DNA of 64,000 nt from Clostridia bacterium (GTDB taxonomy: Bacteria; Bacillota; Clostridia; Christensenellales; UBA1242), in NCBI GenBank assembly GCA_045538455.1, contig JAZSRL010000008.1:9162-73161 (forward strand), in the 5' to 3' direction. Each line of letters opens with the position of its first letter. The stretch's first letter is position 1. Shown here in pieces: positions 7,441 through 22,341 of the stretch. The notes under the pieces were generated by a model. That model was given only the letters and a program-made list of their open reading frames with translations. It made no database searches and was not told the origin of the DNA. The position numbers and the translations under genes are program-made.

Positions 7441-7473
7441 AAAAAACCTAAACCGACAAGTTCGATTTAGGTT
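7441..7473 (-). terminator. Rho-independent terminator (junction element type 2, copy 1)
   Basis: Hairpin AACCTAAACCGA-CAAG-TTCGATTTAGGTT, with a T-run on the minus strand. A near-identical copy lies at 11575-11608. It is followed on the + strand by CTCTTGGCGG. Confidence 0.75.
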
Positions 7474-7522
7474 ACTCTTGGCGGTACGCAGGTAATGTAA
7501 ATTGATTATTTGTGCCGCAAAT

Positions 7523-8263
7523 TTATAATTCTATTTTTTTGTATTTTCCATGACAAATATTTAAAACAGAACAATTCTCATCATAATCAAAATCGTCATA
7601 GAATTCTGCTGGCAAGTTTAAGATATTCATCAGCATACACTTATTAACATTTTTGTGCGCAAAAATTATTACAGTTTGAATATCTTTCTGTTTGGACATT
7701 TTTTCAATGAAATCTGTCACTGTGTTTAATCTCGTTGATACATCTATTGGCGATTCCCCTAGGAATTGAGGTTTATAGTAAGATATCGTATTTTTCTGAC
7801 AATTTTGATAAATTGTTTCATATTTTCTTTTCTTGATTTCTCGATCAATCATATGAAAAGCGCCATATGCTTGTTCTCTGAGCACATTTAAAACAAAAAC
7901 ATTGTCGGAATTATTTTCAAACTGCAAAATTTCATTGGCATATTCATAAGTTGCTCTTGCCCTTTGATAAGGCGAAATCAAAACAAGGGTTTTGTCTTTA
8001 TCAATCCCATTTGCGACTAAATAATTATTCAACTTACGACCAATATCTTTTGATTGAGCAATTCCTTTTTCTGTTAAATCAATTTTAGCGTCTTCAATAA
8101 CCTGATTTTCATCTAATAGTATATTTTCACTTTTTAGTTTTGCCCTTAACGCATTCGAAACAGACTCACCATGCCTAACTAAAAAAACATTTAATTTTTT
8201 GAATAAATTATACGGAGACTGTACTCGATTTAATATTTCTAAACCTTCATATCTGTAATACAT
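7523..8263 (-). CDS. Histidine phosphatase family protein (246 aa)
   Basis: VFLVRHGESVSN (RHG motif) and SPYQRARAT. An AGGAGAG RBS lies upstream of the ATG. Confidence 0.75.
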   Translation of the reverse strand: MYYRYEGLEILNRVQSPYNLFKKLNVFLVRHGESVSNALRAKLKSENILLDENQVIEDAKIDLTEKGIAQSKDIGRKLNNYLVANGIDKDKTLVLISPYQRARATYEYANEILQFENNSDNVFVLNVLREQAYGAFHMIDREIKKRKYETIYQNCQKNTISYYKPQFLGESPIDVSTRLNTVTDFIEKMSKQKDIQTVIIFAHKNVNKCMLMNILNLPAEFYDDFDYDENCSVLNICHGKYKKIEL

Positions 8264-8293
8264 ATTTTTCTCTCCTTTTTTTGTCTTTGTAAA

Positions 8294-8965
8294 TCAAAGT
8301 TTAAAATTCAACAACTCCTTAATTGAAGCAATCGTGATATCTGGTTTGATGAGAATTTCTTTTTCTTCTTTCTTCCATTCGTTGTTAACTTTTGATTTTA
8401 ACCATGCGGTCTTTACACCTAAAATTTTTACAGAAACTAAATCCTCAACAAACTCATCACTCACAAAAAGTATTTTCGAAAAATCTTCTGGTGTTATATT
8501 TTCAAATGCCATTAAATATACTTTTAAGTTTGGCTTACGCTCTTTAATTGTTTCAGATACAATAACTTTATCAAAATATTGTGCGAGATTGTCCCGTTCC
8601 AAAATGTAATCAACATTCTTTTGTGAATTATTACTGATGATACCCAAGTAGTAACCTTGTTTTTTTAATGTCTTAATTGTTTCTACTGTGTCATCATCAA
8701 TAATATGTGATTCAAGTAGTAGCCTATCGATTTTTTGCAAATCCTCTTTTGAAATTTTTAAGAGTATTGATAAATCATGATATATCTGCTCTTCATTAAT
8801 TTTGCCAAGCGACAAAAGCAGTTGATAATTCTTCCAATATTTAAAAACATCTTTCCAATTTAAATTATATTTATCTAAAATAGTTTTAACTTCAGAATCA
8901 GTGTTCTTAAATGAACCCGCTAAAGTATATCCCCAATCAAAAAAGATGTATTTAATTTTATTCAT
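8294..8965 (-). CDS. HAD family hydrolase
   Basis: N-terminal IFFDWGYTL (DxG/DxT-type motif I), GIISNNS (motif II region) and VSDEFVED (motif IV-like). 223 aa. Confidence 0.7.
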   Translation of the reverse strand: MNKIKYIFFDWGYTLAGSFKNTDSEVKTILDKYNLNWKDVFKYWKNYQLLLSLGKINEEQIYHDLSILLKISKEDLQKIDRLLLESHIIDDDTVETIKTLKKQGYYLGIISNNSQKNVDYILERDNLAQYFDKVIVSETIKERKPNLKVYLMAFENITPEDFSKILFVSDEFVEDLVSVKILGVKTAWLKSKVNNEWKKEEKEILIKPDITIASIKELLNFKL

Positions 8966-9438
8966 TTTAAAACCCCTAGAATAGTTATAACTATTATTTA
9001 TAACACAAGTCTAAATCCTGCAACAGAAATTTATAATAGTACTAAAACGACCCCGGTGGATACCCGAGTGATAATGGCACAATAATTTATAAGCAAGATA
9101 TAGAAAAGAGTAAAAACAACATAAAAAATTGCCGCTTGACTTTTCGTTCAAACGACAATTGTCTGGCGGGGCCAAGGCAACATAAAGCGATAAAGCAAAT
9201 TAGACTTTATATTCAATCTTTGCAGCCTATTTATCATAATCGCCGTTAATGCGTTTTTCAGCTTCTGCTTTGCTTCGTAAAGCACTTCCCCGTTGCGTTT
9301 AGCAATTATATTGATTGCATCATCTAAATATCGACCAACTAAAATAAACCGATGACACAACAAATAATAGTTTCTTTACTATCTCTGCTGCGTTCCAATG
9401 CTTTTTGGAATGGCTCACTGTTGGCAATCGTTGAATAT

Positions 9439-9948
9439 TTACAAATTGGTTAAGTTGTGAAGAAAATCATTGACTTGTTCATAATCTTTTAAAATTATTA
9501 TTTTCTTTTCATTTTTATAAAGCTCTAATATTTCAAATATTCTAGGTAAAGTATCAGCCTTAAATTTAATTATAGATTCTATAAATTCATCTTCAATTTT
9601 CGAATTATCAAAACCATCAGCCATATCAGCCGTACGATCTTTTTTAGAACGGGCAATAGCGTTTTGCAAACAAATTTCCGTATCAAGGTTAAGCAATATT
9701 ACTGTATCAGCAAGTTTAACTCTTTGCTCAATTGTCGAAATATAATTGCCGTCAATAATCCAGTGATTATTGCTTTTTGCAAAGGTATCTACTTTTCTGA
9801 CAAGCTCCTCGCGAGAAATACGAGTATGATTGTCGATATGATAAATCTTGTCTAAATGAAGCACTGGGCAATTAAGGATTTCTTTCAACCTAAAAGTCAT
9901 TGTTGATTTTCCGCTTCCGGGACAGCCGATTACAATAATCTTTGCCAT
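9439..9948 (-). CDS. P-loop NTPase / topology modulation (adenylate-kinase-like) family protein
   Basis: MAKIIVIGCPGSGKST Walker A directly at the N-terminus. The ORF track begins upstream at 10002, but the ATG at 9948 fits the family better. Confidence 0.7.
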   Translation of the reverse strand: MAKIIVIGCPGSGKSTMTFRLKEILNCPVLHLDKIYHIDNHTRISREELVRKVDTFAKSNNHWIIDGNYISTIEQRVKLADTVILLNLDTEICLQNAIARSKKDRTADMADGFDNSKIEDEFIESIIKFKADTLPRIFEILELYKNEKKIIILKDYEQVNDFLHNLTNL

Positions 9949-10029
9949 AATATATCTCTTTATTTTATCTATTTCTAGATAAAATGCAAAATACTTTAAC
10001 ATTTCGCTTTTCTTAATATTTTTTTTCTT

Positions 10030-10066
10030 CGAACTACCATAGTTCGTATTATTTACTTTTGGCGGA
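10030..10066 (+). repeat. Junction repeat copy A (partial copy of the tRNA-Ser(UGA) downstream flank plus TGGCGGA)
   Basis: CGAACTACCATAGTTCGTATTATTTACTTTTGGCGGA matches 22226-22260. It contains a 7-bp hairpin, CGAACTA/TAGTTCG. Confidence 0.8.
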
Positions 10067-10131
10067 GACGATGAAAACTAAAACGACTTTGCCATCTTAG
10101 TCTACTTTAATACCTTAAAATTCTAAAAAGC

Positions 10132-10542
10132 CTAAAATTTCTTTATTTTATTCTTTACTGTTTCAAAGAATAATTTATGTGTGTCGGGGTATGTTAAATC
10201 TCGAGGGAGGTCATCAAATACACCAATTTCAGACATCTCGAAATTTGGAAGTTCTCCAAGTTCTTCAATTTCCACATAACACAATAAAGCATAAGATGAA
10301 ATCTTATACACACAAATCGGCGTTACATTAATTTTTGTAGCACCTGTTTCTTCGAACATCTCCCTTTTTGCAGCAGTTAACCAATCTTCACCTTTTTCTA
10401 TATGCCCACCAGGTATTTCCCAGCCATTTCGATTTTTATTTCTAGCAAAAACCCATTTTCCATGGTACTCAGATACACAAACAACTCGTGTATATTCTTT
10501 ATCAGAAACATACCCTAAATTAAATATTTTTACATCTAACAT
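10132..10542 (-). CDS. NUDIX hydrolase
   Basis: Nudix box GGHIEKGEDWLTAAKREMFEETG. 136 aa. Confidence 0.88.
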   Translation of the reverse strand: MLDVKIFNLGYVSDKEYTRVVCVSEYHGKWVFARNKNRNGWEIPGGHIEKGEDWLTAAKREMFEETGATKINVTPICVYKISSYALLCYVEIEELGELPNFEMSEIGVFDDLPRDLTYPDTHKLFFETVKNKIKKF

Positions 10543-10785
10543 TAAATGCCTCGATTTATTAGTTTAAGATATTTTATTGGTATAACAAATTAAAATTTTT
10601 TATTTTTAAATTTTGTTCAGCATATTCAATCTAGAAACACTAAGGTAAAAACAAACAAGGCATTGTGATTTTGCATAAAAAAGCCAGTTATTCACTGACT
10701 ATCTTATGATTAAAATACCCGTTACCCCATTCACAAAGATGTATTCAACTCTTTTGGGTTCTAACACAAACACAATTGACTGATT

Positions 10786-10839
10786 ATAAAAAATATGATT
10801 TAACAAACTGCAAAAGTTCGTATTATTTACTTTTGGCGG
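10786..10839 (+). repeat. Junction repeat copy B
   Basis: ...AACAAACTGCAAAAGTTCGTATTATTTACTTTTGGCGG aligns with copies at 18794-18846 and 22212-22259. Confidence 0.8.
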
Positions 10840-10913
10840 TACGGAGGTAATGTAAATTGATTATTTGTGCCGCAAATTTATAATTCTATTTTTTTTGTCT
10901 TTGTAAATCAAAA
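10833..10913 (+). repeat. Composite duplicate of 7478-7540 joined to 8276-8298 (an 'empty' version of the 246-aa phosphatase locus)
   Basis: TTGGCGGTACGGAGGTAATGTAAATTGATTATTTGTGCCGCAAATTTATAATTCTATTTTTTTT differs from 7478-7540 at one position. It then continues as TTTTGTCTTTGTAAATCAAA, which matches 8276-8298. Confidence 0.85.
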
Positions 10914-10927
10914 TTATTTCGCAAGTT

Positions 10928-11530
10928 TCAAAAGCTTGCGCCCGTACCGATTTTTTTTGTAATTAATTCGTAGGCTTTTTTTACATCATATTCGTCTGTA
11001 ATCTTGATTTCCAAGTTTTTTATGGTTTGCAGCATTCGTTCTTTTGCTTGAAGAATAGTTGTACCATCCTTCCCAGCGAAATCTTCCAAATGTTCATACT
11101 CAAGCAATAAACCTAAACCTTCTACATTTTGCAAAGCCAATTCAACACCATCTTTTTCGTAAACCCAGTAATCATATTTGACCTGAACAAGTTCTTGAAA
11201 ATGTAACGCCAACAGTAATAATTTTGCTTGCTGAACATCATCAATGTTAACATTAATCTTTTCTTCCGTGAGTGTTACGTCTTCTTGAAAAACTTTGTTT
11301 TTGTATGTTAATTTTTGAAAGACGTCTTCACCGGCACGGATACAACGAACCAGAACACACCGTTTCAAGAAATCCGCAATATTATTTTCTCTTAGCCCAA
11401 ATAAACTTGGGCAAAAATAAGTGTCATCTATATACCCTACTTTACGTTGCTGATATCCAAGTTTTAACAATTTTTCTTTGACTTTGTCTATGTTTTCTAA
11501 CACACGCGTAGTAATCTCTATTTGTTTCAT
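10928..11530 (-). CDS. CYTH-like domain protein (class IV adenylate cyclase / triphosphatase family, tentative)
   Basis: 200 aa. The N-terminal KQIEITTRV resembles a degenerate ExExK strand, and a later LLLEYEH strand is also CYTH-like. Size fits CYTH. This is a weak motif-level call. Confidence 0.4.
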   Translation of the reverse strand: MKQIEITTRVLENIDKVKEKLLKLGYQQRKVGYIDDTYFCPSLFGLRENNIADFLKRCVLVRCIRAGEDVFQKLTYKNKVFQEDVTLTEEKINVNIDDVQQAKLLLLALHFQELVQVKYDYWVYEKDGVELALQNVEGLGLLLEYEHLEDFAGKDGTTILQAKERMLQTIKNLEIKITDEYDVKKAYELITKKIGTGASF

Positions 11531-11574
11531 AAAATGAATGTATCAAACAAATATTGCTTTGTCTATTTCAAACT

Positions 11575-11608
11575 AAAAAAACCTAAACCGAGATGTTCGA
11601 TTTAGGTT
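11575..11608 (-). terminator. Rho-independent terminator (junction element type 2, copy 2)
   Basis: AACCTAAACCGA-GATGT-TCGATTTAGGTT with a minus-strand T-run. It is positioned to terminate the R-M-like operon and the recombinase remnant. Confidence 0.7.
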
Positions 11609-12024
11609 TCTCTTGGCGGCATGTGGTCTAAATCGTTTGAACTATTTATCAAAACTGTTTCCGCTGTTTGTTTAACAGCGTCGATATCATCAGGGATTTC
11701 TTTTGGGGATAAGTGCGTATCAGAAAAGTTGTATGTTATTATTACTTTCTCGTTATCTACAATAATTTCGCGAATTAAATATCTGACTATCGTTTTTCGA
11801 GCAGAAATAAGTTTCATATCCCCTTTCATTGCAGATGTTAAATATTGTTTAATTTTCTCTGGTGTTAAATATACATAGTTCCTTTGTTTTTCTTGTTCTA
11901 TATCAAATTCATATTGCGAGATAATTGTTTCTAATTCCTTTAAGCGAGTTTTTGTTTGTTCCGTAATTATGGCGGAGCGAAGCGACGCCACTTGTATATA
12001 GACAAGCACACGTTTAACTGCCAA
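11602..12024 (-). pseudogene. C-terminal remnant of a large serine recombinase
   Basis: The translation (LKELETIISQYEFDIEQEK...IVRYLIREIIVDNEKVIITYNF) resembles the coiled-coil and C-terminal end of large serine recombinases. No catalytic N-terminal domain is present. The frame reads through the CCGCCA junction motif. Confidence 0.5.
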
Positions 12025-12070
12025 CTAATGAGTAATTGTACTTATATATTTATTTTATATGTTTACCAAA

Positions 12071-14578
12071 TTAAACTTTTTTCATGTCACTATAAGCGAT
12101 TGTTGTGTCCCAACCACCAACAAGCGCGCCTTCATGCTTATTAATTCCAGAATATGACAAACTACTATCCTCATATCGCCTAAACTGGAAAACTGCTTGA
12201 TTCATGAGTTCTGCATTAAACAATCCTAAACTTGTTAAAAGTTCAAAATCATTAACCTCTAAACCTGTAACTCTTTTAAATAAACCAGGTTCAAGTTGAG
12301 TAATGACATCTTTTAACACTTGTTCACGATAGTCAGTTAGATACATGAAGATAGGAATACGAGTCGCAAACTTAATAAGTTTTTCTTGAATTTGTTTTCT
12401 CTTTGATTTATATTCTTTTTCTTCTTCGGATATAGTTTTCTTTTCTTGTCGCGTTAAATCACGACCTTCATTAGTAGCATCTTTTTTTATTTTTTTTATT
12501 GCGTTAGATTTATTAACTATAATTTCAATATCACTTTGTAAATTAAGATTTCTGAATCCTTCGATACTCATAAGAGCAGTTAAAGCTCTCTCATTATTTA
12601 ATAATCTTTCCAATGTAATATTATCAACATTTACAAGACAAGCACTTTCCCATCGGCGAGCAAGTAAAGTTGCCGTTGTTCCACTAGTTGCAATATCCAA
12701 AAGTTCACCCGGACTAATATTTTTCATCGTCATGCCATCGTATGACAAAACTGGCAAGAACTGAATAAACTCAGCAACTTTTCTTTCTGGATTTATGTCA
12801 TCAATGTTCAAACGACAAGAATATTCTTCAATTTGTCTTAAAGCTCTATCAGGTGCAAAATCAAATATATAACATTCTTTTTTAATAATCTCATCTTCAT
12901 TGGGATTTAATCCAGTTGGATTTTTTAACACCCACGGTGATTGAACCCTAAATGCTGCCTGAAAGTATGATTCAGGACTAGAAAGATTGCGTAACATAAA
13001 AATACCCGTCCAAGGCTTAACTGTTACTCCTGTTGTTAGTTTACCACAAGACAATGTAATTGTTTTTGTATTAAGCGGATCACTTGTCATTGCTTTTTTT
13101 ACAGGATCTAACGCTGCAAGCCCCACCCCAGCCCTAGTTCCAGCAGATACGATAATTTTATATTCTTGATAAAATAAGTTTTGTCTTTCTTGCAATAAAT
13201 TCGCCATTGCATAACAACTCGCAACATTCGGCAAAAACCAAAAAGTATGTTGTAGAACTTCTTGTAAATTTGCCTTGTTAGTTGTGAATGGTAAGTATGC
13301 TTTTTCTGCGCCTTGTTTCAAATTATCAACAGTAGTTTCCAAATAATTACCACGTATCAAGTCAAGCCATTTTTGAACTTCTTCTTTGTAAACGAATTCA
13401 GCAGATTCATATTCGCCTCTTGCCGAAAAAAATGTATTTAAATCAAATTCATTATATTCACCTTTCAAAGCAACTTCTCGAATGCTTTCAGGGAGTTGAT
13501 AAGTCATCAAAACCATTCTCGGCAGACTTGCATATGGATTATTTTCTCCTTGCCAATTTTCTTTTTCTCTCTGTTCATCAGAATATGTCCAGTTATAAAT
13601 TTGTTCTTCAACAAACTCGCCATTAGCAATAGCCCTAAAAGGTGTTCCAGACAAATAAAGATAATACGAAGTTGTTATTGGCATAATTTGCTCAATATCA
13701 CTTTCACTTTGATTGTCGTTAAAAAGTTTGTTTGAAACATCTTTATCCAAGTCTTCTTTTTCAAAAAGATCTTTTGCGTTGTCACGCCAAGCACCAAAAT
13801 GATATTCATCAAAAACAACTAGGTCCCAATTTGTCGCATGTACCCATTCGTTTTTTGGTTTTATCATTCCGTCTTTTAATCCAAGATAATCTTGGAATGA
13901 CCCAAAACAAACGATAGGTTTATTTTTATCTAAATCATCAAACTTGTTTTGCGTATGCCTTGAAATAAATTGCCATCCTTCAAAATCCAAATGAGTATTC
14001 AAATCATTTTCCCAGGAACTTTCAACGGCAGGCTTGAAAGTTAAAATCAACACTCGCTTAAAATTCATTCTTTGTGCCAATTTGTATGTCGTAAAAGTTT
14101 TACCAAACCTCATTTTGGCATTCCACAAAAAGTGCGGAATTATTTTAGAATTTTCTTGTTTTATAGAATTAAAATATTTGGTTGTTTTTTCAATAGCAAG
14201 TTCTTGCTCTGGTCTAAGTTTAAAGTTTTGAGTTCTGCGTTCTTTATTTTCAATTCTGTTTTTAAGTGTAAAAACAGCACTTTGAACATCTCGAACATCA
14301 CATCTAAACCATTCACCATTGGGGTTATCAAAACCTTGTGCTTTTAATAATCGATGCACATCATGGTCCATAAAATATGAGCCATCTTCTCTCATACTGC
14401 TTTCCGAAAAAACAATTTTATATGGGAGTTCTCCAGGTCTAAGTGTTGGATATTGGTCAGCAACTCTTTGCTCAACATTTGTTGTGGTATATCCAACTTT
14501 AAGAAGACCTTTGTATAACTTATCTTCATAAGCATAAATTTGTGGTTTAATTTGTCGCGGAAAAAATTCTTTATTCAT
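12071..14578 (-). CDS. T5orf172/GIY-YIG-superfamily-like domain fused to an SF2 (ResIII-type) helicase; putative restriction/effector subunit
   Basis: N-terminus: IYAYEDKLYKGLLKVGYTTTNVEQRV...HDVHRLL...GEWFRCDV (T5orf172-like). Helicase motifs: MRFGKTFT (I), VVFDEYHFG (II) and LSGTPF (III). The ATG at 14578 overlaps the upstream stop by 8 nt. Confidence 0.75.
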   Translation of the reverse strand: MNKEFFPRQIKPQIYAYEDKLYKGLLKVGYTTTNVEQRVADQYPTLRPGELPYKIVFSESSMREDGSYFMDHDVHRLLKAQGFDNPNGEWFRCDVRDVQSAVFTLKNRIENKERRTQNFKLRPEQELAIEKTTKYFNSIKQENSKIIPHFLWNAKMRFGKTFTTYKLAQRMNFKRVLILTFKPAVESSWENDLNTHLDFEGWQFISRHTQNKFDDLDKNKPIVCFGSFQDYLGLKDGMIKPKNEWVHATNWDLVVFDEYHFGAWRDNAKDLFEKEDLDKDVSNKLFNDNQSESDIEQIMPITTSYYLYLSGTPFRAIANGEFVEEQIYNWTYSDEQREKENWQGENNPYASLPRMVLMTYQLPESIREVALKGEYNEFDLNTFFSARGEYESAEFVYKEEVQKWLDLIRGNYLETTVDNLKQGAEKAYLPFTTNKANLQEVLQHTFWFLPNVASCYAMANLLQERQNLFYQEYKIIVSAGTRAGVGLAALDPVKKAMTSDPLNTKTITLSCGKLTTGVTVKPWTGIFMLRNLSSPESYFQAAFRVQSPWVLKNPTGLNPNEDEIIKKECYIFDFAPDRALRQIEEYSCRLNIDDINPERKVAEFIQFLPVLSYDGMTMKNISPGELLDIATSGTTATLLARRWESACLVNVDNITLERLLNNERALTALMSIEGFRNLNLQSDIEIIVNKSNAIKKIKKDATNEGRDLTRQEKKTISEEEKEYKSKRKQIQEKLIKFATRIPIFMYLTDYREQVLKDVITQLEPGLFKRVTGLEVNDFELLTSLGLFNAELMNQAVFQFRRYEDSSLSYSGINKHEGALVGGWDTTIAYSDMKKV

Positions 14579-16079: not shown

Positions 16080-16715
16080 TTACATCCTCCTCTTTTAGGT
16101 TTAAGTAATGAACTAGTGGATAAGTTTTAATTGGCTTATCAACAAAGTCCCCTAAAATTTCTGATTGGTGTTTTCTTTTTTCTTGTACGGTAACAAGTTG
16201 CTCATACATAAAATCTCGCCGCTGTACTAAATTTCCTTTCACAAACGACCACTCAGCAAAAACTAATGGGTTACCGTCAACTGCCTTCATTGATAACGCA
16301 TCACCACATAAAATGTTTTTGAATAGAATAAATCTGACAATCTCTAAATAATCTTCTTTGATATTTTTTTTAAAAATACTCTTATAGCAATCTAAAAACA
16401 TACCATATAACCGATTAATACACTCTTCAACGTTATCCTGTAAAATATCAACTCCGTAAACCGACATCACTGCTATCAAACCATTCTTCTCATATTCCCA
16501 TTGACTCTTTTTATATCTTGCTTTAACTACTTCAAGTTTTCTTCGGAGTATTTCAATTAAAAAATTTCCATTACCACAAGCAGGCTCTAAAAAACGGCTA
16601 TCAATTCTTTCAGTTTCTTGCTTTACTAGGTCAAGCATTGCATTGACTTCACGTTCATTTGTGAACACTTCGCCATGATCTACAACTCTTTTTTTTGACC
16701 TAACTTGTGCCGACA
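16072..16715 (-). CDS. Methyltransferase-like protein lacking the (D/N)PPY catalytic motif (SAM-binding N-terminal half only)
   Basis: GEVFTNEREV (motif X), FLEPACGNGNFL (motif I), VYGVDI and NILCGDAL, but no NPPY before the stop. An AAGGAGA RBS precedes the ATG at 16715. There is an 8-nt overlap with the next gene. Confidence 0.65.
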
Positions 16716-16761
16716 TTTTTCTCCTTTGTTCACACCACAAGTTTTAGAAAATTTAATTTAC

Positions 16762-16901
16762 AAAGGTGTACCTTTACGGAATTCAAAAAAAAAGAAAAAA
16801 AGATAATACAAAAAACGACAATATGTGTTACACTGTTATTATAGATAAATAAAACACTAGAATTTTTAGTTAGAATTAAAATTCTATAAAGGTACACCTT
16901 T
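16762..16901. promoter_or_regulatory. Candidate invertible DNA segment bounded by 15-bp perfect inverted repeats (hix-like sites), carrying a promoter-like element
   Basis: AAAGGTGTACCTTTA (16762-16776) and TAAAGGTACACCTTT (16887-16901) are exact reverse complements. Each site is AAAGGT-NN-ACCTTT with an asymmetric core, GT in one and AC in the other. Inside the segment is GACA, 16 bp of spacer, then TGtTATTAT (16817-16842, + strand). Confidence 0.6.
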
Positions 16902-16907
16902 ATAAAA

Positions 16908-16937
16908 GCCCCACTCTATCTTGGTGAGGCTTTTTTT
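16908..16937 (+). terminator. Rho-independent terminator between the invertible segment and the invertase promoter
   Basis: GCCCCAC...GTGAGGC stem with one mismatch, followed by T7. Confidence 0.55.
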
Positions 16938-16945
16938 GTTATAAT
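16937..16945 (+). promoter_or_regulatory. Extended -10 promoter element of the invertase gene
   Basis: TGTTATAAT (TGnTATAAT) lies 19 nt upstream of the GAGGT RBS and the ATG at 16964. Confidence 0.5.
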
Positions 16946-16963
16946 CACTCGAGGTAAAAACAA

Positions 16964-17557
16964 ATGAAATATGGATATATTAGAGTTAGTACAAAAGAAC
17001 AAAACATTGATCGCCAACTTATAGAGATGCATGACTATGGTATTAGTGATGAAAACATCTATATTGACAAACAAAGTGGAAAAGACTTTAATCGTGTTAA
17101 TTATCAACTCTTAAAAAATAAAATTCAACCTGGCGATTTAATTGTCATCAAAAGTATTGACCGTCTAGGGAGAAATTATGATATGATCATAGACGAATGG
17201 AAAGATATTGTTAATCGTTGTAACAGCGACATTCTAGTTTTAGACATGCCACTACTAGACACTCGAACCGAAGGTAAAAATTTAGTCGGTAAATTTATTA
17301 GCAATATCGTGCTTGAAATTTTATCTTTTGTTGCAGAAAATGAACGTGATAACATTAGGAAACGCCAAGCTGAAGGCATACGGATCGCAAAACTACAAGG
17401 AAAACATTTAGGACGTCCCAAATATGTTTTACCCTCAAATTATAATGAAATAATTTTACTTTATGAAAATAAATCAATTTCACTTATTGAAACATTAACA
17501 AGATTAAAAATGAATAAATCAACTTTCTATAAATATCGTAAATTACAAAAAGTTTGA
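16964..17557 (+). CDS. Small serine recombinase (Hin/Gin/Pin-type DNA invertase or resolvase)
   Basis: MKYGYIRVSTKEQNIDRQ (catalytic Ser region), SIDRLGRN, ERDNIRKRQAEGI, and a C-terminal HTH-like tail. 197 aa. Confidence 0.9.
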   Translation: MKYGYIRVSTKEQNIDRQLIEMHDYGISDENIYIDKQSGKDFNRVNYQLLKNKIQPGDLIVIKSIDRLGRNYDMIIDEWKDIVNRCNSDILVLDMPLLDTRTEGKNLVGKFISNIVLEILSFVAENERDNIRKRQAEGIRIAKLQGKHLGRPKYVLPSNYNEIILLYENKSISLIETLTRLKMNKSTFYKYRKLQKV

Positions 17558-17578
17558 TTTATACTTTATTTCAAATAA

Positions 17579-18517
17579 CTACTTAAACTTTCGCCAGCAC
17601 TTTTCTTTTAAGAATAATTTAATTGTGCTAACATCTTCATCTTCGTAATATTCTACTAAAAGTTTTTTGAATTCGGGGACTTCTTTCTCCGGAATAACAA
17701 TTAAACCTTCACCTTGTGCAATCATAAAGTGGTTTGTAAATATTATTGAAGCCCTTTTATTGCCGTCATTAAAAATTTGCGTTTTCATACAATACAAGCA
17801 CAATTCAATTGCTTTATCAATATTTGAAAGATTGCTTGAAATGATATTGATTATTTTTTCTTTAACATCAATTTCGTTTGGGATTGGTGGAACATAACTT
17901 GAACCACCGATTGCAACCGGTACACCTCTAACTCTACCGCCTTCTTCGTAGAAACCTTCATTAACAAGTTTAGCAATATACGAAAGAATATAAAAGTCTG
18001 TTTGTGCTTGAATCACATCTTTATCCAAAATGAACTCCCAAGCATGTTTAAGATTAAGAATTTTTTGAACATCGCTTGGTCGCATACCCGTAACCTTACC
18101 ATTGTCAATAATAGTTTCCGTTTGCGGGAAAGTCGTTGCAACGCCCTCTAACATTGCTTGGTCATAAATATTGGCTTTCATATTGGCTCTAGCAAAGTCT
18201 AAATTTAATTCAACTTCAGGAGAAAGATTATTTGAGACATAATTAAGTAGAGCAAGTTCTTTTTCAATTTGTCTAATTGATTTTTGCAATTCTCTTGCTT
18301 CTTTTGAGTATCTTAAAAGTGTTTGATATAACTCGTCCGAAAACTTATCCACATATTGAGATGTTAACCTACCAAGTTCTCTTTTACGAATATACAAATA
18401 TTTACCACTTTTATTTTCTTTAATTTCAGGAGTGCCTGTATAAGGGATTAAACTTAATCTTGTTTGTAAATCGGCTTTTTTTCTCAATAGTTCTTGAATA
18501 TTATTGAAATTACTCAT
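17579..18517 (-). CDS. Fic/Doc-family-like protein with a degenerate active-site motif
   Basis: The C-terminal region has QIFNDGNKRAS where Fic/Doc proteins have HxFx(D/E)(G/A)N(G/K)R. The catalytic His position is Gln. Confidence 0.55.
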   Translation of the reverse strand: MSNFNNIQELLRKKADLQTRLSLIPYTGTPEIKENKSGKYLYIRKRELGRLTSQYVDKFSDELYQTLLRYSKEARELQKSIRQIEKELALLNYVSNNLSPEVELNLDFARANMKANIYDQAMLEGVATTFPQTETIIDNGKVTGMRPSDVQKILNLKHAWEFILDKDVIQAQTDFYILSYIAKLVNEGFYEEGGRVRGVPVAIGGSSYVPPIPNEIDVKEKIINIISSNLSNIDKAIELCLYCMKTQIFNDGNKRASIIFTNHFMIAQGEGLIVIPEKEVPEFKKLLVEYYEDEDVSTIKLFLKEKCWRKFK

Positions 18518-18767
18518 TTTAACGCTCCTTTTTTTAGGGAATATTTTTATATATAAATATATATAATTGTTCCCTGAAAGTCAATATTTTACTGTCATCA
18601 ATTTTCTAGTAAACATATCAAAAACTCGAACTTAAAAATTTCAGGCTCACCAAAAACATTTCAGCGATACACAGGTGAATAACAATTAAACAAACAAAAC
18701 CCGCTAAACAGTTTAATTTTTATTCACAAAAATATTCAAAACTGAACTATTGTTTAATTTCTAAAAT

Positions 18768-18848
18768 CACTCCAAAATAGTCTTGGGTGTAAAAAATATT
18801 ATTCAACAAACTGCAGTAGTTCTTATTATTTACTTTTGGTGGGAAGAC
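18768..18848 (+). repeat. Junction repeat copy C (full-length copy of the tRNA-Ser(UGA) 3' end and flank)
   Basis: CCAAAATAGTCTTGGGTGTAAAA..TTATTCAACAAACTG...TAGTTC.TATTATTT.CTTTTGG.GG aligns with 22185-22263. By eye I count about nine substitutions and one 1-nt indel. Confidence 0.85.
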
Positions 18849-18910
18849 CGCTATCCAATCCTAACACTAAAATCTACATTGGTGCTAGGTGGATTAAACT
18901 ATTTGTTTAT

Positions 18911-21244
18911 TTATAAATATCTATCTATTAAAGAAAGCTGAAATTCATTTAAATTTTCAATGTTTTTATTAAAAACAATTTCTTGTTCATCAATTTTATC
19001 AATACATTTTATTAACCATTCAATGTCTTCAAAACTAAACCCATATTTTAATAGCCATATTTCTGTTTCGTCATCGGTTCCATATTTTACATAATTAGAC
19101 ATTGTTAAAGCCAATTCATTATTTGTTCTTAGATAATATTGATAGAAACAAGCATAAAACACATCGCTTAGTTTAAAATTAATTAACTTATCTAAAAAAT
19201 CATAAGTATCATATACAACTCTATCGTAGTCTATCATGGTTGCAAGACTTCTTCCAAATAAACTATATCGTTTAAGTTTTTTATTAGGTAAATCATTGTA
19301 TCCTGTAAAATACTCTGCTTGTAGATAACTTAAATTTTTTTCGTAAATTTTTTTTACTAAAGAATCTTTTTCAACCTTAATTTTTTTTATCAATTCATTT
19401 TTTTGTTTTTTTCTTGTCACTTGTGCATATCTAATATTGCAAATAGTTTTAAAGGTGCGATTATTAATTTGCCACAAAATAATTCTGATTGCTGATTTTA
19501 GAACATCATTTTCTGCAGGCTCTAATTTTCTATTAAGATAATGTTCATATAATTTTGTAAATCCATCATAAATCAAAGGTTGGGTTCTAGTGTCGTTATT
19601 AATATTTTCGTCAGGAATTATTTTATTTTCTATAAAAACATTTGACAAAATATTTTCTATAACATGATTTAGTTTGTCTTCATTTAATCTTGAAACTTCT
19701 TGATTTGTTAAGTTATATTCGTCAGAAAAAGTTCCTTCTTTAATGGCTTTTTTGAAATCTCTATAGTCGTCATTTAAAACATCTTTATCTAAGTTAGACA
19801 CATTATCGAGATTATTAGTTCCCAATAATACATTTCTTAATTGACTCATGTTGTTGTTTTTAACTATTACATATCCAAAATCAAATTTGTTAACTGCGGT
19901 AGAACGACCAGCCCGTCCAATTAAATTTTTAATTGCTAAGGGCTCGCTTTCTTGAAATGTATTTATATAAACTATATCAAAAGGCATGTTTATGCCTTGC
20001 TCTAGTGTTGATGTTGCAAAACATATTTTACAATAATTTAGATTTGTGAATTTTTCTAACAATTGACGAACCCTTAACGGCATTGAACCATGATGAACAA
20101 CAATACCACGATACAACATTTCAATCATTAAAGAATTATACTCATCATTTTCTTTGTTTGTTGCTCCTATATACTTTTTAATTTCTTCTATAATATTTTT
20201 TGCATTGTCATCGTCAAGCTCATTACATAATTTTATATATTTTGCAAATTCTGTGAAAACATCTTTGTTATAAATACTAGACTTTGTTGTATAAACAAGA
20301 ATCGAACCACCATTTTTTATAACATCGAAAATGATATCTTTAGAACAAGGAGTTTTTATGCCTCCCATAATTTCTTTATTAATACCAAAATAATAAAAGG
20401 AGTTTTCGACATGTGATACAAAAATTTGTCCAACGTTTCTTTGTTCGTATTTAACGGCATCATAAGATTCTTTTATTAAATTATTTTTTTCTAATTGCGC
20501 TATTGGATTATTTATAAATGGATGGGCAAAAATAATTTTTGTGTTTGGAAAATTTGAGTTTATTCGTCTCACAATACTATCAAAATAAATACCTCTTTGC
20601 GATTCTTCGTTTCCTATTTGAGCTTCATCAAATAGAACTAACTCTATGTTAAAATTGTCTTTTTGTTTAAATAAATCTTTACATCTTTCAGGCGTGACAA
20701 TAAAGATTGAACGGGTTGCTTTTTTAATATTAATTTTTTCTATAAAAGTGAGAATGTTTATTGATTTATCAGTAATCATATTACAAATTTTTTCATAATA
20801 CTCATTTATTAATGCTCTAGATGGAACAATAACTACTACATCATTGGTTGCATTGGTTAACAAATATCTAAATGTAAAAGATTTTCCAGTACTAGTTGGT
20901 GCTGAAAAACTAAAAATTTGATTGTTTTTTATTTTTTCAATAATGTCTGCCTGAAGTGGTGTGTAATTATCACCTAATTGTTGAAATATATGTGTATTAT
21001 ATAAATCAAATATTTTTGCTTTTAAAGATTTGTATTTTGGTTTTTTATAAAATATACCCATTATTTCAATTATATCTTGTTCTATTTCATTAAACTTTTC
21101 TGCTTGAAACAATTTTAAATAAGATATTATTTCCATTAAAGTGTTATCTGTTGGCCCATTTTCATATAATTGGTTAATAGTGTAATTTATAATATTATCA
21201 ACATCTTCATTATTTATTATTTTTTTAATTATTTCAGTCATCAT
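18911..21244 (-). CDS. hamB: Hachiman HamB-like SF2 (DExH-type) helicase
   Basis: 777 aa with SAPTSTGKSF (Walker A), VLFDEAQ (motif II) and IGRAGRS (motif VI). There is a 4-nt ATGA overlap with the upstream DUF1837-like gene. Confidence 0.75.
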   Translation of the reverse strand: MMTEIIKKIINNEDVDNIINYTINQLYENGPTDNTLMEIISYLKLFQAEKFNEIEQDIIEIMGIFYKKPKYKSLKAKIFDLYNTHIFQQLGDNYTPLQADIIEKIKNNQIFSFSAPTSTGKSFTFRYLLTNATNDVVVIVPSRALINEYYEKICNMITDKSINILTFIEKINIKKATRSIFIVTPERCKDLFKQKDNFNIELVLFDEAQIGNEESQRGIYFDSIVRRINSNFPNTKIIFAHPFINNPIAQLEKNNLIKESYDAVKYEQRNVGQIFVSHVENSFYYFGINKEIMGGIKTPCSKDIIFDVIKNGGSILVYTTKSSIYNKDVFTEFAKYIKLCNELDDDNAKNIIEEIKKYIGATNKENDEYNSLMIEMLYRGIVVHHGSMPLRVRQLLEKFTNLNYCKICFATSTLEQGINMPFDIVYINTFQESEPLAIKNLIGRAGRSTAVNKFDFGYVIVKNNNMSQLRNVLLGTNNLDNVSNLDKDVLNDDYRDFKKAIKEGTFSDEYNLTNQEVSRLNEDKLNHVIENILSNVFIENKIIPDENINNDTRTQPLIYDGFTKLYEHYLNRKLEPAENDVLKSAIRIILWQINNRTFKTICNIRYAQVTRKKQKNELIKKIKVEKDSLVKKIYEKNLSYLQAEYFTGYNDLPNKKLKRYSLFGRSLATMIDYDRVVYDTYDFLDKLINFKLSDVFYACFYQYYLRTNNELALTMSNYVKYGTDDETEIWLLKYGFSFEDIEWLIKCIDKIDEQEIVFNKNIENLNEFQLSLIDRYL

Positions 21245-21927
21245 ATGTTTACCGCCACAATTAAAAGTTCTTCATATTGTAATAAACTTATGAAGTTCTG
21301 ATTTCTTTTTATGTTTTTTACCAATTCTTCTGTGGGGATTTGTTTTGCAGCAAAACCTATAGCAAATCCCTTTTCGCCAAGAGTTGCTTTGTTTAAGCTT
21401 GTTTCATCGCAAAATTCATCAATTAATTTTAAATCTGCAATATCTTTTTCTTTGTTAATAAAATCTACTACTTGAGATAATGCTCTACCATAAGAATTTT
21501 GCAAGGACGAGTATTTAGCTTCTCCGAATATTATAGTATTTAAATCATTTACTGTAAAAAAATCAAATCCTGGATTGCCTGAAATTTTTCTTCCTAACAA
21601 TTCCGCAAGAGGGATATCTAAATAGTTTAGATTATTAATTATGCTTTTACGCGATATCTCAGACACCACATACTCTCCCGTATCTTCAGTAAGAGGGTCA
21701 TTTAGATTATCACGTAATTGTTTTGATAGTTTGTCTGCTGTTGGTTTTGCTCTTGCTAAAAAACTTTGTTTAGTGTAAATTTTATCAAAATTATTTATCC
21801 ATGACATATCATTTAATGTTTGAATTATATTTAGAATTGTATTATTTAAATCATCAATTTCAACTCTAATGAATGTCACCCTTATACATTCATCTACTTC
21901 GATTGGGAAATTTTCAATTATTTTCAT
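21241..21927 (-). CDS. hamA: Hachiman HamA-like (DUF1837-type) putative PD-(D/E)xK nuclease
   Basis: 228 aa with GFDFF...IIFGEAKYSS (a D...ExK pattern). Its size and its position immediately upstream of the helicase match the Hachiman architecture. Confidence 0.65.
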   Translation of the reverse strand: MKIIENFPIEVDECIRVTFIRVEIDDLNNTILNIIQTLNDMSWINNFDKIYTKQSFLARAKPTADKLSKQLRDNLNDPLTEDTGEYVVSEISRKSIINNLNYLDIPLAELLGRKISGNPGFDFFTVNDLNTIIFGEAKYSSLQNSYGRALSQVVDFINKEKDIADLKLIDEFCDETSLNKATLGEKGFAIGFAAKQIPTEELVKNIKRNQNFISLLQYEELLIVAVNI

Positions 21928-22184
21928 TTGTACCTCTGTAATGATTATATCATATTTTTTTTAAAAAATTTCTATCTTATGACAAAAAAAGAAAAACTAT
22001 TTTCATGTTTTTCTCAAAGTTGATTTTATTGATTGGTTTGCAAATCTCTATAGACTACGTTTGCGGATAGGCTTAAAAAAATTGCCATTAATCTTACCAA
22101 ACTTTTTAAGTCGGTAAAAAAATATATCTAAATCCTATTTGGCTTATTTGCCTTACTTTTTAAACAACTAAACGATAGTACAAC

Positions 22185-22263
22185 CACCCCAAAATAGTCT
22201 TGGGTGTAAAAGACGTTATTCAACAAACTGTCATAGTTCGTATTATTTGCTTTTGGCGGAAGG
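22185..22263 (+). repeat. Junction repeat copy D (native tRNA-Ser(UGA) 3' end plus downstream flank)
   Basis: Reference copy. It overlaps the last ~10 nt of the tRNA. Confidence 0.85.
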
Positions 22264-22341
22264 AGAGAGATTCGAACTCCCGGACCCTCGCAGGTCGCCT
22301 GTTTTCAAGACAGGTGCATTAGACCACTCTGCCATCCTTCC
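22254..22341 (-). tRNA. tRNA-Ser (anticodon UGA)
   Basis: The reverse complement GGAAGGATGGCAGAGTGGTC...CCTGTCTTGAAAACAGG...GGGAGTTCGAATCTCTCTCCTTCCGCCA folds as a cloverleaf with a long variable arm. CCA is encoded. Confidence 0.92.

Follow-up and report, generated by a model that had tools for sequence, protein, structure and literature searches.

The window, by which we mean the whole 64-kb stretch of DNA that was analysed, comes from an uncultured gut/rumen Clostridia bacterium and carries a series of gene units arranged head to tail downstream of a tRNA-Ser(UGA) gene. Six minus-strand units (0.77–7.2 kb) occupy positions 7479–22259 and are separated by seven junctions, all in the same orientation. 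The cargo consists of phage-defence systems and single nucleotide/phosphate enzymes. The GC content is 26–34% in the array and 36–42% in the flanks, which hold tRNA genes and DegV on one side and orf131, a histidine phosphatase (HisPhos) and NrdD on the other; beyond the distal end of the array lie orf131 and then NrdD. All junctions have in common the hexamer TGGCGG (CCGCCA on the tRNA strand, the 3′ end of tRNA-Ser), with the variant TGGTGG at one of them. In the following list, this hexamer is called the core and the sequences that flank it are called arms; LSR stands for large serine recombinase.

22254–22341, minus strand: tRNA-Ser(UGA), putative integration target (ARAGORN; Rfam tRNA)
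22254–22259, minus strand: core J1, the last 6 nt of tRNA-Ser(UGA)
18843–22253, minus strand: unit 1, Hachiman, 3.4 kb, 26% GC; 3′ arm x2 at 18843–~18870
22040–22253, minus strand: arm A copy 1, the P′ (5′) end of unit 1; repeated part 22179–22253
18837–18842, minus strand: core J2, TGGTGG on the plus strand
11620–18836, minus strand: unit 2, 7.2 kb (Pfam, PADLOC, tblastn)
18762–18836, minus strand: arm A copy 2, the P′ end of unit 2
17579–18517: Fic, unit 2 (Pfam/PADLOC)
16964–17557, plus strand: small serine invertase (resolvase), unit 2
16072–16740, 14571–16079 and 12071–14584: split type IIG-like R-M system, unit 2
11602–12024: orf140 (140 aa), LSR C-terminal remnant, unit 2; reads through core J3
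11614–11619, minus strand: core J3, joining the LSR-tail P arm x3 (GTTC-N19-CCGCCA) to arm C
10840–11613, minus strand: unit 3, 0.78 kb; CYTH-domain gene 10928–11530 (Pfam); 3′ arm B 10840–10895
11574–11613, minus strand: arm C copy 2, terminator hairpin and U-run, 5′ arm of the CYTH unit; fold z −5.1
10834–10839, minus strand: core J4, joining arm B of the CYTH unit to arm A copy 3
10786–10839, minus strand: core J4 with arm A copy 3, 5′ arm of the NUDIX unit
10066–10833, minus strand: unit 4, 0.77 kb; NUDIX hydrolase gene 10132–10542 (Pfam); 3′ arm x5
10060–10065, minus strand: core J5, adjoining the short A arm of the kinase unit
10030–10065, minus strand: core J5 with the short A arm, hairpin GAACTA..TAGTTC, 5′ arm of the kinase unit
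9170–10059, minus strand: unit 5, 0.9 kb; P-loop kinase gene 9439–10002 (Pfam)
9164–9169, minus strand: core J6, adjoining arm D; orf71 reads through
9113–9169, minus strand: core J6 with arm D, terminator hairpin and U-run (terminator scan), 5′ arm of the HAD/HisPhos unit; fold z −3.3
7485–9163, minus strand: unit 6, 1.7 kb; HAD hydrolase 8294–8965 and histidine phosphatase 7523–8263 (Pfam); 3′ arm B 7485–7540
7479–7484, minus strand: core J7, at arm C copy 1; distal end of the array
7439–7484, minus strand: core J7 with arm C copy 1, terminator hairpin; fold z −4.5

Read along the tRNA strand, each unit runs from a 5′ arm (A, C or D) through its gene or genes to a 3′ arm (B, x2, x3, x5 or x6). 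Each junction is composed of the 3′ arm of one unit, CCGCCA and the 5′ arm of the next, and the hexamer at the end of every unit is the same as the one that precedes it. Pfam and PADLOC recovered the gene content that an earlier note on this DNA had listed, except that the resolvase gene lies on the plus strand; the recombinase remnant named there is present and is, more exactly, the C-terminal part of a large serine recombinase. HamB (18911–21244) was matched by PADLOC at E 2.9e-54. The 228-aa ORF that overlaps it (21241–21927) matched neither the HamA model nor a Pfam family, so that it is designated a putative HamA by position only. The 3′ segment of unit 5, x6 (9170–9445), contains orf71, the frame that reads through J6.

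Blastn and alignment within the window recovered every repeat described in the earlier note, all in one orientation. For arm A, 22179–22264 and 18762–18847 were 84% identical over 86 nt without gaps (88% over 68 nt by blastn, E 2e-15), and partial copies were found at 10759/10786–10839 (E 9e-12 against the 18.8-kb copy) and at 10032–10065 (E 8e-9). The second junction type, 7439–7484 and 11574–11619, was 93% identical over 46 nt (E 2e-14). We additionally detected arm B, in which 7472–7540 and 10827–10895 were 97% identical over 69 nt (E 3e-30); arm B of unit 3 is 97% identical to 7485–7540. Arms A and B showed no significant structure (z −0.15 and −0.40 for A, −0.04 for B). The arms re-assort around the core, in the combinations B.core.A, B.core.C, x3.core.C, x6.core.D and tRNA.core.A, and the two arms flanking one core are unrelated in sequence. 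As had been proposed, most of the repeated sequence lies outside the tRNA: most junctions repeat just 6 nt of it. Arm x2 has at most a weak tRNA resemblance over ~13 nt, and no displaced tRNA fragment of tens of nt was found.

We then asked where else these sequences occur. No arm copy was found by blastn in the window outside 7.4–22.3 kb. The repeat matched one of 185,579 species representatives of the genome collection, there too directly 3′ of tRNA-Ser, and 14 metagenome loci, each of them at the end of a tRNA-Ser or at a junction with cargo, which argues against a generic element scattered through genomes. In other gut Clostridia, the same system of core and arms surrounds defence cargo beside tRNA-Ser(GCU), tRNA-Ser(GGA) and a tRNA-Ser(CGA)-like gene; in one of these loci (L001), ~220 nt of arm A copy 1 are conserved 3′ of tRNA-Ser(GCU).

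Comparison with metagenome contigs from related strains (92–96% DNA identity) showed that the 15-kb block is not an invariant unit. In ten contigs (L016–L025), tRNA-Ser(UGA) is followed directly by arm C and CYTH, with Hachiman, Fic/R-M and NUDIX all missing, and in L026–L031 a different block follows the tRNA. The Hachiman unit was not found in L016–L031, the Fic/R-M unit was absent from all relatives compared, and no block homologous to the NUDIX unit occurred in L016–L032, while the CYTH unit (10834–11619) is conserved in L016–L024. Since the tRNA is followed directly by arm C and CYTH in relatives, the Hachiman and Fic/R-M units, 10.6 kb together, represent insertions. The presence of arm C at this place in all relatives also means that the repeated stretch next to the tRNA, real as a repeat, is not the ancestral downstream flank that the earlier note had taken it for. 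Arm A is instead the recombinase-distal end (P′) that each element brings with it.

The breakpoints of these differences coincide with the junctions. Blastn blocks shared by the window and L016 end at 7479, 9169, ~10053, 10834, 11619 and 22254, which are the cores. The unit order is CYTH, NUDIX, kinase, HAD-HisPhos in the window and CYTH, HAD-HisPhos, kinase in L016, where the kinase block (9446–10053) has been relocated; the kinase unit occupies a different array position in both L016 and L018, preceded there by the same short A arm. In L022, HisPhos is followed by B.core.C and no kinase is seen, on a 4-kb contig that ends 126 nt past that junction. The 5′ and 3′ arms of each unit were constant in every genome compared, whereas the partners across the core were exchanged. 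Arm C is joined to the tRNA, x3 or B, exchanged exactly at the 6-nt hexamer, and arm D is joined to B in L016, to x6 in the window and to an LSR tail in L051, with homology switching exactly at the hexamer. The weak 'GTCTGGCGGGG' occurrence near 9164 thus proved to be a real junction. Two changes lay elsewhere: HAD was deleted in L018 between 31-nt repeats (8271–8301 and 10885–10915) away from the core, and arm C was truncated in L016 at a non-core breakpoint. Taken as a whole, the comparisons (window against L016, L018, L022 and L026) indicate that each unit varies between strains on its own and that the breakpoints lie in the att sites, and they support the serial site-specific integration at tRNA-Ser that had been suggested.

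The sites themselves have a regular geometry. A GTTC motif lies 14–16 nt from the core in at least six unrelated left-arm families and 14 nt from it in all tRNAs, including the T-loop GTTC of tRNA-Ser(UGA) at J1, and every element 3′ arm has GTTC/RWTC at a distance of 19 nt; the background frequencies of the spaced motif are 0.01, 0.003 and 0.015. Other TGGCGG/CCGCCA hexamers in the 64-kb window have no flanking GTTC, except at the two tRNA-Ser genes. In serine integrases, the zinc-ribbon motif is located 5 bp further inward in attB than in attP (PMC3783163). The sites here are dyad-symmetric with a 5-bp offset of this attB/attP type, on one side of the site only, and arm A, the element's other arm, shows attB-like spacing. 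All junctions have only the hexamer TGGCGG/TGGTGG in common, which agrees with the very short crossover identity and the lack of a long target duplication in serine integrases.

Tblastn searches with LSR tails pointed to an enzyme family for these sites. Residues 47–175 of the L041 tail matched window positions 11991–11614 with 53% identity (E 3e-37), and orf140 matched the L026 LSR at E 1e-4. The orf140 frame reads through CCG CCA and has its stop codon inside arm C; in an alignment of 11 LSR tails, homology stops at the Pro codon of the core. The order LSR 3′ end, P arm, CCGCCA and terminator hairpin recurred in L034, L048/49, L050 and L051. The L050 locus has 367- and 125-aa ORFs with Resolvase, Recombinase and Zn_ribbon_recom domains, and in L051 homology to the window begins exactly at the core and runs on into arm D. 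An intact element was found in L052, in the order tRNA, core, A-type arm, cargo, full LSR, core and terminator. It starts at tRNA-Leu(CAG)...CCGCACCA, followed by an A′-type arm, AATAATACGAAC..GTTCGTATTATT; its LSR (534 aa) ends in GTTC-N20-CACCA, and a terminator hairpin follows. This closest intact element targets tRNA-Leu, not tRNA-Ser, and its tail is ~45–50% identical to orf140. Within the array and the 64-kb window, tblastn and Pfam detected no functional or intact LSR, only the 140-aa C-terminal remnant, so for five of the six units the link to the enzyme is drawn entirely from site anatomy. The intact LSR beside the same tRNA in L026–L028 showed no link to the sites of the array.

Based on these results, we consider it probable (about 0.7) that site-specific recombination at the tRNA-Ser(UGA) 3′ terminus, most probably by an LSR, gave rise to 7439–22259 as an accretion array of six tandem units. 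The orf140 remnant at J3, the dyad sites with the 14/19 offset and the intact L052 element together point to such an enzyme, and not to the tyrosine integrase of a classical tRNA island. The LSR family would recognise a dyad-symmetric site of ~45–50 bp, one half-site of which would be the tRNA acceptor/T-arm end (GTTC-N14-CCGCCA) and the other the start of the hairpin after the tRNA (core-N14/15-GAAC). The element-borne site would overlap or closely follow the 3′ end of the recombinase gene, with the motif placed 5 bp further out (N19) as in attP. Integration would then put the element between the tRNA and its previous downstream neighbour. The spacing at the junction next to the tRNA (tRNA, core, arm A) is attB-like once more, so the next element could land there. 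Since no unit has a working recombinase, the units can be regarded as att-flanked cassettes that have no recombinase of their own, the equivalent of CIMEs or pseudo-SCC elements: units 1 and 3–6 have both arms and no recombinase, and unit 2 has the remnant only. They could move only with a cognate LSR supplied from elsewhere in the genome or by an incoming element. The exact position of the crossover, and a present-day mobility of the units in trans as suggested in the earlier note, are inferred.

Other origins of the array were weighed against the same evidence. Tyrosine-integrase islands have the 3′ ends of tRNAs as their standard target (Islander, PMC4383910), and tandem remnants with partial tRNAs at their flanks are known, for instance in tycheposons. 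The array could therefore consist of such islands, serially integrated at tRNA-Ser and then decayed, with the LSR remnant as incidental cargo. A tyrosine recombinase does lie in the variable block beside the same tRNA in L026, but its neighbour there is a type I MTase, neither an arm nor a core lies close by, and neither Pfam nor tblastn with this enzyme detected a tyrosine recombinase or a remnant of one in the array or the window. The piece of tRNA that is displaced measures just 6 nt, whereas tyrosine islands normally restore a longer tRNA segment; the inverted motifs 14–19 nt either side of the core are too distant for core sites with 6–8-bp overlaps, and the remnant that reads through the core is that of an LSR. 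We regard this origin as unlikely. A system guided by single-stranded hairpins, either an integron-type integrase or an HUH transposase of the IS200/IS605 type, might instead insert cassettes 3′ of CCGCCA. It would suit cassettes that are of single-gene size, co-oriented and mostly without a recombinase, the hairpin that several units have at their 5′ end beside a hexamer resembling a cleavage site, and the recurrence of the preceding hexamer at the end of every unit. No IntI or Y1 transposase was found in the array or window, however, and arms A and B have no significant structure. The hairpins are wholly different between arm types, yet the duplex-type GTTC stands at fixed spacing on both sides, and in L050, L051, L052 and the window a physical fusion joins the site to an LSR gene. 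This explanation appears the least probable of those weighed here.

Scarcely more probable, in our view, is that the junctions are ordinary terminators or REP/MITE-like repeats, with the strain differences produced by homologous recombination and deletion. Arms C and D are indeed strong terminator-like hairpins after genes or the tRNA, and both the loss of HAD in L018 and the arm C truncation in L016 took place away from the core. Partners are nevertheless exchanged exactly at the hexamer between sequences that are unrelated on either side of it, and unrelated arms with only six shared bases exclude homologous recombination. The absence of arm copies elsewhere in the window and the confinement of public matches to tRNA-Ser ends and cargo junctions also speak against it, as does the fact that it is gene units that move; a MITE would come and go between genes that stay collinear, and whole junction modules do not do so. 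Returning to LSR-mediated accretion, a stronger version would make the array, at tRNA-Ser here and at tRNA-Leu in relatives, the equivalent of an integron run by a serine integrase: a chromosomal platform on which an LSR acting in trans would capture, excise and re-order single-gene cassettes of 0.8–1.7 kb, each with its own P and P′ half-sites, and the attB-like site regenerated at the tRNA-proximal junction would let the array keep growing. We find this version doubtful.

Among known systems, the array is a variant of SCC-like/CIME-type accretion, a known type of structure that is here miniaturised to single-gene cassettes and placed at a new target. As in SCCmec composite islands and tandem SCC-like cassettes at rlmH of staphylococci, the 3′ end of a single conserved gene carries a head-to-tail stack of units with short att sites, many units have no recombinase, and the cargo is rich in phage-defence systems. 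Staphylococcal SCC-like units are mobilised by Ccr large serine recombinases from a neighbouring cassette (PMC11470126), whereas mobilisation is only inferred here, the array has no recombinase, and the host belongs to an uncultured low-GC lineage of Clostridia. Further differences are that the target is a tRNA 3′ end with its downstream hairpin instead of a protein-coding gene, that a single LSR, whose site, where one was seen, falls within its final codons or directly behind them, takes the place of a CcrA/CcrB pair, none of which was observed, and that four of the six units are only 0.77–1.7 kb with one or two genes. In the ssrA islands of Dehalococcoides, insertion by DsiB, a CcrB-family serine recombinase, was mapped in the T-loop region, and tandem islands downstream are bounded by direct repeats, several of the islands being without an integration module and interpreted as cis-mobilisable (PMC3146451). 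The resemblance extends to an LSR-family integrase, here a probable one, acting at the 3′ end of a tRNA-like gene, to tandem stacking and conservation beyond the repeat (PMC3146451). In contrast, 20 bp of ssrA are repeated there and 6 bp of tRNA here, the islands are 10–30 kb with a 6-gene integration module by attL, whereas the recombinase here, where present, is distal, and cargo and phylum differ.

CIMEs of the ICESt1/ICESt3 family have lost integration and transfer genes and kept attL and attR, and they accrete when a new element integrates into a resident element's att site (PMC5704250). Their definition fits the units of the array, although the described cases involve tyrosine integrases and conjugative helpers and range in size from kilobases up to tens of kilobases; genes for conjugation or for a relaxase were not seen in the array. 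In the tycheposons of Prochlorococcus, elements integrate one after another at tRNA genes, tRNA-Ser(UGA) among them, and the older ones are displaced outward; 910 of 937 have tyrosine recombinases and leave ~40-nt partial tRNAs, and a minority have large serine recombinases. Degenerate elements, scattered partial att repeats and a small adaptive gene cargo are shared with the array, but tycheposons often carry replication modules and reside in a cyanobacterium, whereas the array has no replication genes and no partial tRNA longer than 6–15 nt. With integron arrays, it shares co-oriented, mostly promoter-proximal single-gene cassettes, intervening recombination sites and a strain-variable order. 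It differs in having no IntI, attI or Pc, in being anchored on a tRNA, and in sites that are duplex-type dyads with unrelated arms instead of folded attC hairpins.

The array would extend the SCC/CIME principle, in which a serine recombinase moves tandem cassettes that lack a recombinase, to uncultured gut/rumen Clostridia, to tRNA targets and to cassettes of single-gene size. It suggests how, in concrete terms, strains of otherwise ~93–96% DNA identity exchange defence systems (Hachiman, R-M, Fic, TIR, STAND, HEPN) and small nucleotide/phosphate enzymes. The tRNA-Ser/Leu ends with their hairpins form a natural set of att sites with a readable 14/19-nt half-site code, which could help to find the cognate integrases and could serve integrase engineering. 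If cassettes are shuffled in trans, the array would answer the same problem as integrons do, by a second and independent mechanism.

In the integron-like version, the recurrent stand-alone tail ORFs, which comprise the coiled coil and C-terminus without a catalytic domain, might be kept as modulators of recombination directionality and not be dead remnants. Some features of the sites speak against an LSR. Because of the attB-like spacing of arm A, the reconstructed attP is asymmetric, unlike the textbook picture of an LSR. Arm A is conserved over ~80–220 nt, far beyond the needs of an LSR half-site.

Repeat finding and sensitive self-BLAST bore out each of the repeats listed in the earlier note, and all copies had the same orientation, as it had stated. 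The last bases of tRNASer (UGA) and its downstream flank (22179-22264) matched 18762-18847 at 84% over 86 nt ungapped (by self-BLAST, 88% over 68 nt, E 2e-15), with partial copies at 10759/10786-10839 and 10032-10065, while the hairpin junction at 7439-7484 matched 11574-11619 at 93%. An additional 69-nt repeat, absent from that list, was detected between 7472-7540 and 10827-10895 (97%), and self-BLAST found no copies outside the array in the remainder of the 64-kb window. Read base by base, the junctions were modular. Each contained the plus-strand hexamer TGGCGG (TGGTGG at J2), which on the tRNA strand reads CCGCCA and corresponds to the last two acceptor bases, the discriminator G, and the CCA of the tRNA. 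The hexamer was preceded on its left by arm A (four junctions), C (two), or D (one), with C and D each consisting of a hairpin and a U-run, and followed on its right by the tRNA, arm B (two junctions), or the unique sequences x2, x3, x5, and x6. The tRNAs predicted by ARAGORN, the hexamer cores, and the six units into which the cores split the array were as follows.

tRNA genes, cores, and units of the array
22410-22497, plus strand: tRNASer (GGA)
22254-22341, minus strand: tRNASer (UGA)
22254-22259: core J1
18837-18842: core J2
11614-11619: core J3
10834-10839: core J4
10060-10065: core J5
9164-9169: core J6
7479-7484: core J7
Unit 1, tRNA-proximal, 3417 bp: Hachiman, with HamB (E 2.9e-54) and a putative HamA assigned by position only
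Unit 2, 7223 bp: Fic, small serine invertase, split type IIG-like R-M, orf140
Unit 3, 780 bp: CYTH
Unit 4, 774 bp: NUDIX
Unit 5, 896 bp: P-loop kinase
Unit 6, distal-most, 1685 bp: HAD and histidine phosphatase

The array was flanked by core genes, NrdD on one side and tRNASer (GGA), DegV, and AsnRS on the other, and its GC content was 26-34% versus 36-42% in the flanks. Searches for identical copies of the NrdD, AsnRS, NUDIX, and putative HamA proteins returned no record, which places the source genome outside the collection searched. The small units (7523-11530) all encoded phosphate- or nucleotide-handling enzymes, namely a histidine phosphatase, a HAD hydrolase, a KTI12/AAA_18-like P-loop kinase, a NUDIX hydrolase, and a CYTH protein. 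They may share a function, for example in nucleotide-signal or anti-phage metabolism; PADLOC returned a single weak match among them, NUDIX to PDC-S07. Another histidine phosphatase homologue was located just beyond the array (5893-6444). Within unit 2, 44-nt inverted repeats with 75% complementarity surrounded a 62-nt segment (16757-16906) between the start of a methyltransferase ORF (16072-16740, minus strand) and the small serine invertase gene (16964-17557, plus strand), an arrangement that looks like an invertible promoter switch for the split type IIG-like R-M system.

We then compared the array with those of close relatives, whose contigs were reached via homologues of the adjacent DegV gene; all comparators were metagenome contigs, falling into the groups L016-L025 (~92-96% DNA identity to the window) and L026-L032 (~93.6%). 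In every relative whose contig reached tRNASer (UGA), arm C followed the tRNA directly, indicating that window units 1 and 2, which span 10.6 kb, were inserted between the two. In L016-L025, the CYTH gene came after this tRNA–C junction, and the L016-type arrangement was present on ten contigs, which came from at least nine sample records. The homology blocks between the window and L016 stopped at 7479, 9169, ~10053, 10834, 11619, and 22254, that is, at the cores. The earlier note had considered that related genomes might carry the entire block as one invariant unit; this was not the case, as both content and order differed between genomes.

Gene order from the tRNA
Window: Ham, Fic-RM, CYTH, NUDIX, kinase, HAD-HisPhos, orf131
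L016: CYTH, HAD-HisPhos, kinase, orf131
L018: as L016 without HAD, which was lost by deletion between 31-nt repeats
L022: CYTH, HAD-HisPhos, then arm C, with the contig ending 126 nt later

Each unit retained the same 5′ and 3′ arms in every genome compared, so that a junction consists of the 3′ arm of one unit, the core, and the 5′ arm of the next.

Arms of each unit
Hachiman: 5′ arm A, 3′ arm x2
Fic-RM: 5′ arm A, 3′ arm x3
CYTH: 5′ arm C, 3′ arm B
NUDIX: 5′ arm A, 3′ arm x5
Kinase: 5′ arm A-short, 3′ arm x6 (in L016, lost together with part of the arm that follows)
HAD-HisPhos: 5′ arm D, 3′ arm B

The two arms around one core were unrelated in sequence and exchanged partners exactly at the hexamer, which rules out homologous recombination as the source of the junction pattern. 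Site-specific recombination at the hexamer can account for it. Arm A was itself conserved over ~220 nt between two species (window 22040-22253 and L001 2690-2921) despite a different tRNA (UGA vs GCU) and different cargo. This stretch is far longer than a recombinase half-site and may contain promoter, regulatory, or accessory-factor sites.

Two further differences from the relatives were observed. In the group of relatives to which L026 belongs (L026 1-7370; 93.6% DNA identity, DegV 99% identical), the tRNA–C junction was followed by a different block that contained a 211/261-aa ORF, an intact 497-aa large serine recombinase (LSR), a 193-aa ORF, a tyrosine recombinase adjoining a type I-like N6 methyltransferase, and what may be a fragment of a specificity subunit, with neither A nor B arms in the block. 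Having no association with arms or core, the LSR and tyrosine recombinase that lie beside this tRNA in L026-L028 were left out of the evidence. In addition, a 259-nt segment (6632-6890) inside a plus-strand ORF (6565-6882) was missing from L016; it includes a 54-nt tandem duplication with 88% identity (6718-6823).

The possibility raised in the earlier note that the repeat is a generic element dispersed over genomes was not borne out by scans of species representatives and metagenomes. Rfam searches at gathering and E-value thresholds returned only tRNAs, the repeats matching no known RNA family. Among 185,579 species, each represented by one genome, a scan for the A-arm/core motif identified a single locus (L001), in which ~220 nt similar to arm A lie directly 3′ of tRNASer (GCU), with core glycolysis genes upstream and accessory genes downstream. 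The metagenome scan yielded 14 loci, all from human gut, in which the 24-nt core region was the same but the left arm (A′) different; the core was followed on the right by a tRNASer 3′ end, a B-like arm, or a third arm type (c). The tRNA ends at these cores belonged to tRNASer (GGA) or a tRNASer (CGA)-like gene, and the neighbouring genes were of defence type (TIR, STAND NTPase, HEPN+DUF5343, trypsin-like protease, Fic, and Hachiman-like helicase). No match to the A-arm/core pattern was found in viral contigs. Since all loci from the species and metagenome scans were of this kind, the element is confined to tRNASer ends and cargo boundaries.

We next examined the recombinase sequences associated with the sites. 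The product of orf140 (11602-12024) in unit 2 matched the C-terminal part of LSRs, with 53% identity to the tail of an LSR in L041 (E 3e-37) and an alignment to residues 374-463 of the L026 LSR (E 1e-4). Its reading frame crosses the J3 core (CCG CCA, Pro-Pro) and ends at a stop codon in arm C. In an alignment of 11 tail homologues, similarity stopped at the core Pro, which places the crossover site within the final codons of the gene. The 64-kb window contained neither a full LSR nor a tyrosine recombinase, and searches with both recombinase tails recovered no full-length close homologues, the products (70-206 aa) being remnants or genes cut by contig ends, as in L034; sequenced phages searched in the same way gave nothing usable. 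Two different LSRs of the tail family (L041 8597-10528 and L050 8834-10378) carried a single in-frame stop that parts the catalytic/zinc-ribbon body from the coiled-coil/C-terminal tail, and in the window (11602-12024) and L051 (2376-2957) the tail alone formed an open ORF beside R-M genes, the two being 50% identical over the aligned 115 residues. The explanation could be decay that recurs at one point, recoding, or tails that function on their own.

The order of LSR 3′ end, P arm (the element-borne half-site), CCGCCA, and terminator hairpin was also found in L034, L048/49, L050, and L051. The sites of L048/49 and L050 lay at the end of a prophage-like block, and the homology of L051 to the window started exactly at the core and continued into arm D. 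In L034, from another lineage of gut Clostridia, three cores within 1.3 kb form a miniature array.

Cores of L034 (8494-9900)
Core 1: A″.TGGTGG.B′
Core 2: hairpin.TGGCGG and a 15-nt tRNASer 3′-end fragment
Core 3: hairpin.TGGCGG.type-c arm, adjoining the LSR 3′ end

An intact example was provided by L052, in which a tRNALeu (CAG) ending in CCGCACCA was followed by an A′-type arm, small cargo, and, at the distal end, a complete 534-aa LSR whose last codons contain GTTC-N20-CACCA, and then a terminator hairpin. This order fixes the polarity of the element, with the A-type arm as the recombinase-distal (P′) end and the recombinase tail as the P end, and unit 2 of the window has the same polarity.

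Several other recombinase candidates were set aside. In six metagenome loci, an ORF of ~540 aa recurred 245 nt from the site; it encodes a membrane protein whose peptidase-MA-like match was weak and fell below the threshold, and it was counted as cargo, as was its 526-aa homologue in L033. The window ORF at 35278-36459 beside tRNAThr is ThyX-like rather than an integrase; orf71 at J6 showed no similarity to LSR tails, its sole match being the arm-D portion of P0134; and the distant tail homologues in L036-L046 had other att sequences and no downstream CCGCCA core, and hence say nothing about which target is chosen. The right end of the window (57036-63644) was phage-like, with a large terminase (61137-62627), a weak portal match (60046-61113), several ORFs without Pfam matches, and a sigma-70-like gene (62934-63644). 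This region may belong to a prophage or phage-derived element that extends past the window edge, and is a candidate location of a helper recombinase.

The spacing of motifs around the hexamer was then analyzed. At least six unrelated families of left arms had GTTC at a distance of 14-16 nt from the hexamer. On the right side, GTTC (the T-loop) was located 14 nt from the hexamer in every tRNA, and GTTC or RWTC 19 nt from it in every element-borne 3′ arm; the background frequencies of the spaced motifs are ~0.01 (left), 0.003, and 0.015. Serine integrases characteristically use a dyad site of ~45-50 bp in which the outer motif of attB is 5 bp nearer the centre than that of attP (PMC3783163). Here, the 5-bp offset was visible on one side of the site only, and the left and right half-site spacings gave no single consistent centre; we therefore claim no crossover dinucleotide or position. 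The tRNASer (GGA) gene 68 nt from the occupied tRNASer (UGA) has the same CCGCCA end and is unoccupied; the sequence following it has no GTTC half-site, and tRNASer (GGA) is the target in another species (L004/L007).

The observed junction anatomy, unit-level polymorphism with breakpoints at cores, LSR remnant, and intact relative point to the following as the most likely route. An element with its own LSR, or a cassette served by one in trans, would recombine its P.core.P′ site with the tRNA, the core, and the arm that follows. The product, tRNA.core.A, would again have attB-like spacing on both halves, so that the next element could land there and displace older units outward. Order differences between strains could arise from different acquisition orders or from excision and re-integration, either of which would suffice. 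We infer that an LSR most probably catalysed formation of the window junctions and that the units may be mobile today. The window units, all now without the enzyme, are most likely fossil or trans-dependent cassettes.

Among known systems, the closest are the tandem cassettes of SCC and SCC-like elements, which are mobilised by Ccr serine recombinases and rich in defences (PMC11470126), followed by the Dehalococcoides ssrA islands with a CcrB-family recombinase and tandem units, some without an integration module (PMC3146451). The CIME/accretion concept is applicable to the array (PMC5704250), and tycheposons are also comparable. Unlike these systems, the array targets a tRNASer/Leu end and the hairpin after it, shares only 6 bp of the target, has a recombinase gene that, where present, overlaps its own site, and includes four units reduced in size to one or two genes; its host also belongs to a different lineage. 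Literature searches found no description of this cassette arrangement, and we therefore rate the array as new within an already known kind of structure.

Two observations concerned genes elsewhere in the window. In a GyrA/ParC-like ORF of 1165 aa (38933-42430), the topoisomerase IV/gyrase A domain started only at residue 383, and the ~380-aa N-terminal stretch might represent an intein, a fusion, or a start called too far upstream. The window also contained two NrdD (anaerobic ribonucleotide reductase) paralogues (3566-5719 and 44502-46990), one with an ATP-cone and the other adjoining its radical-SAM activase.
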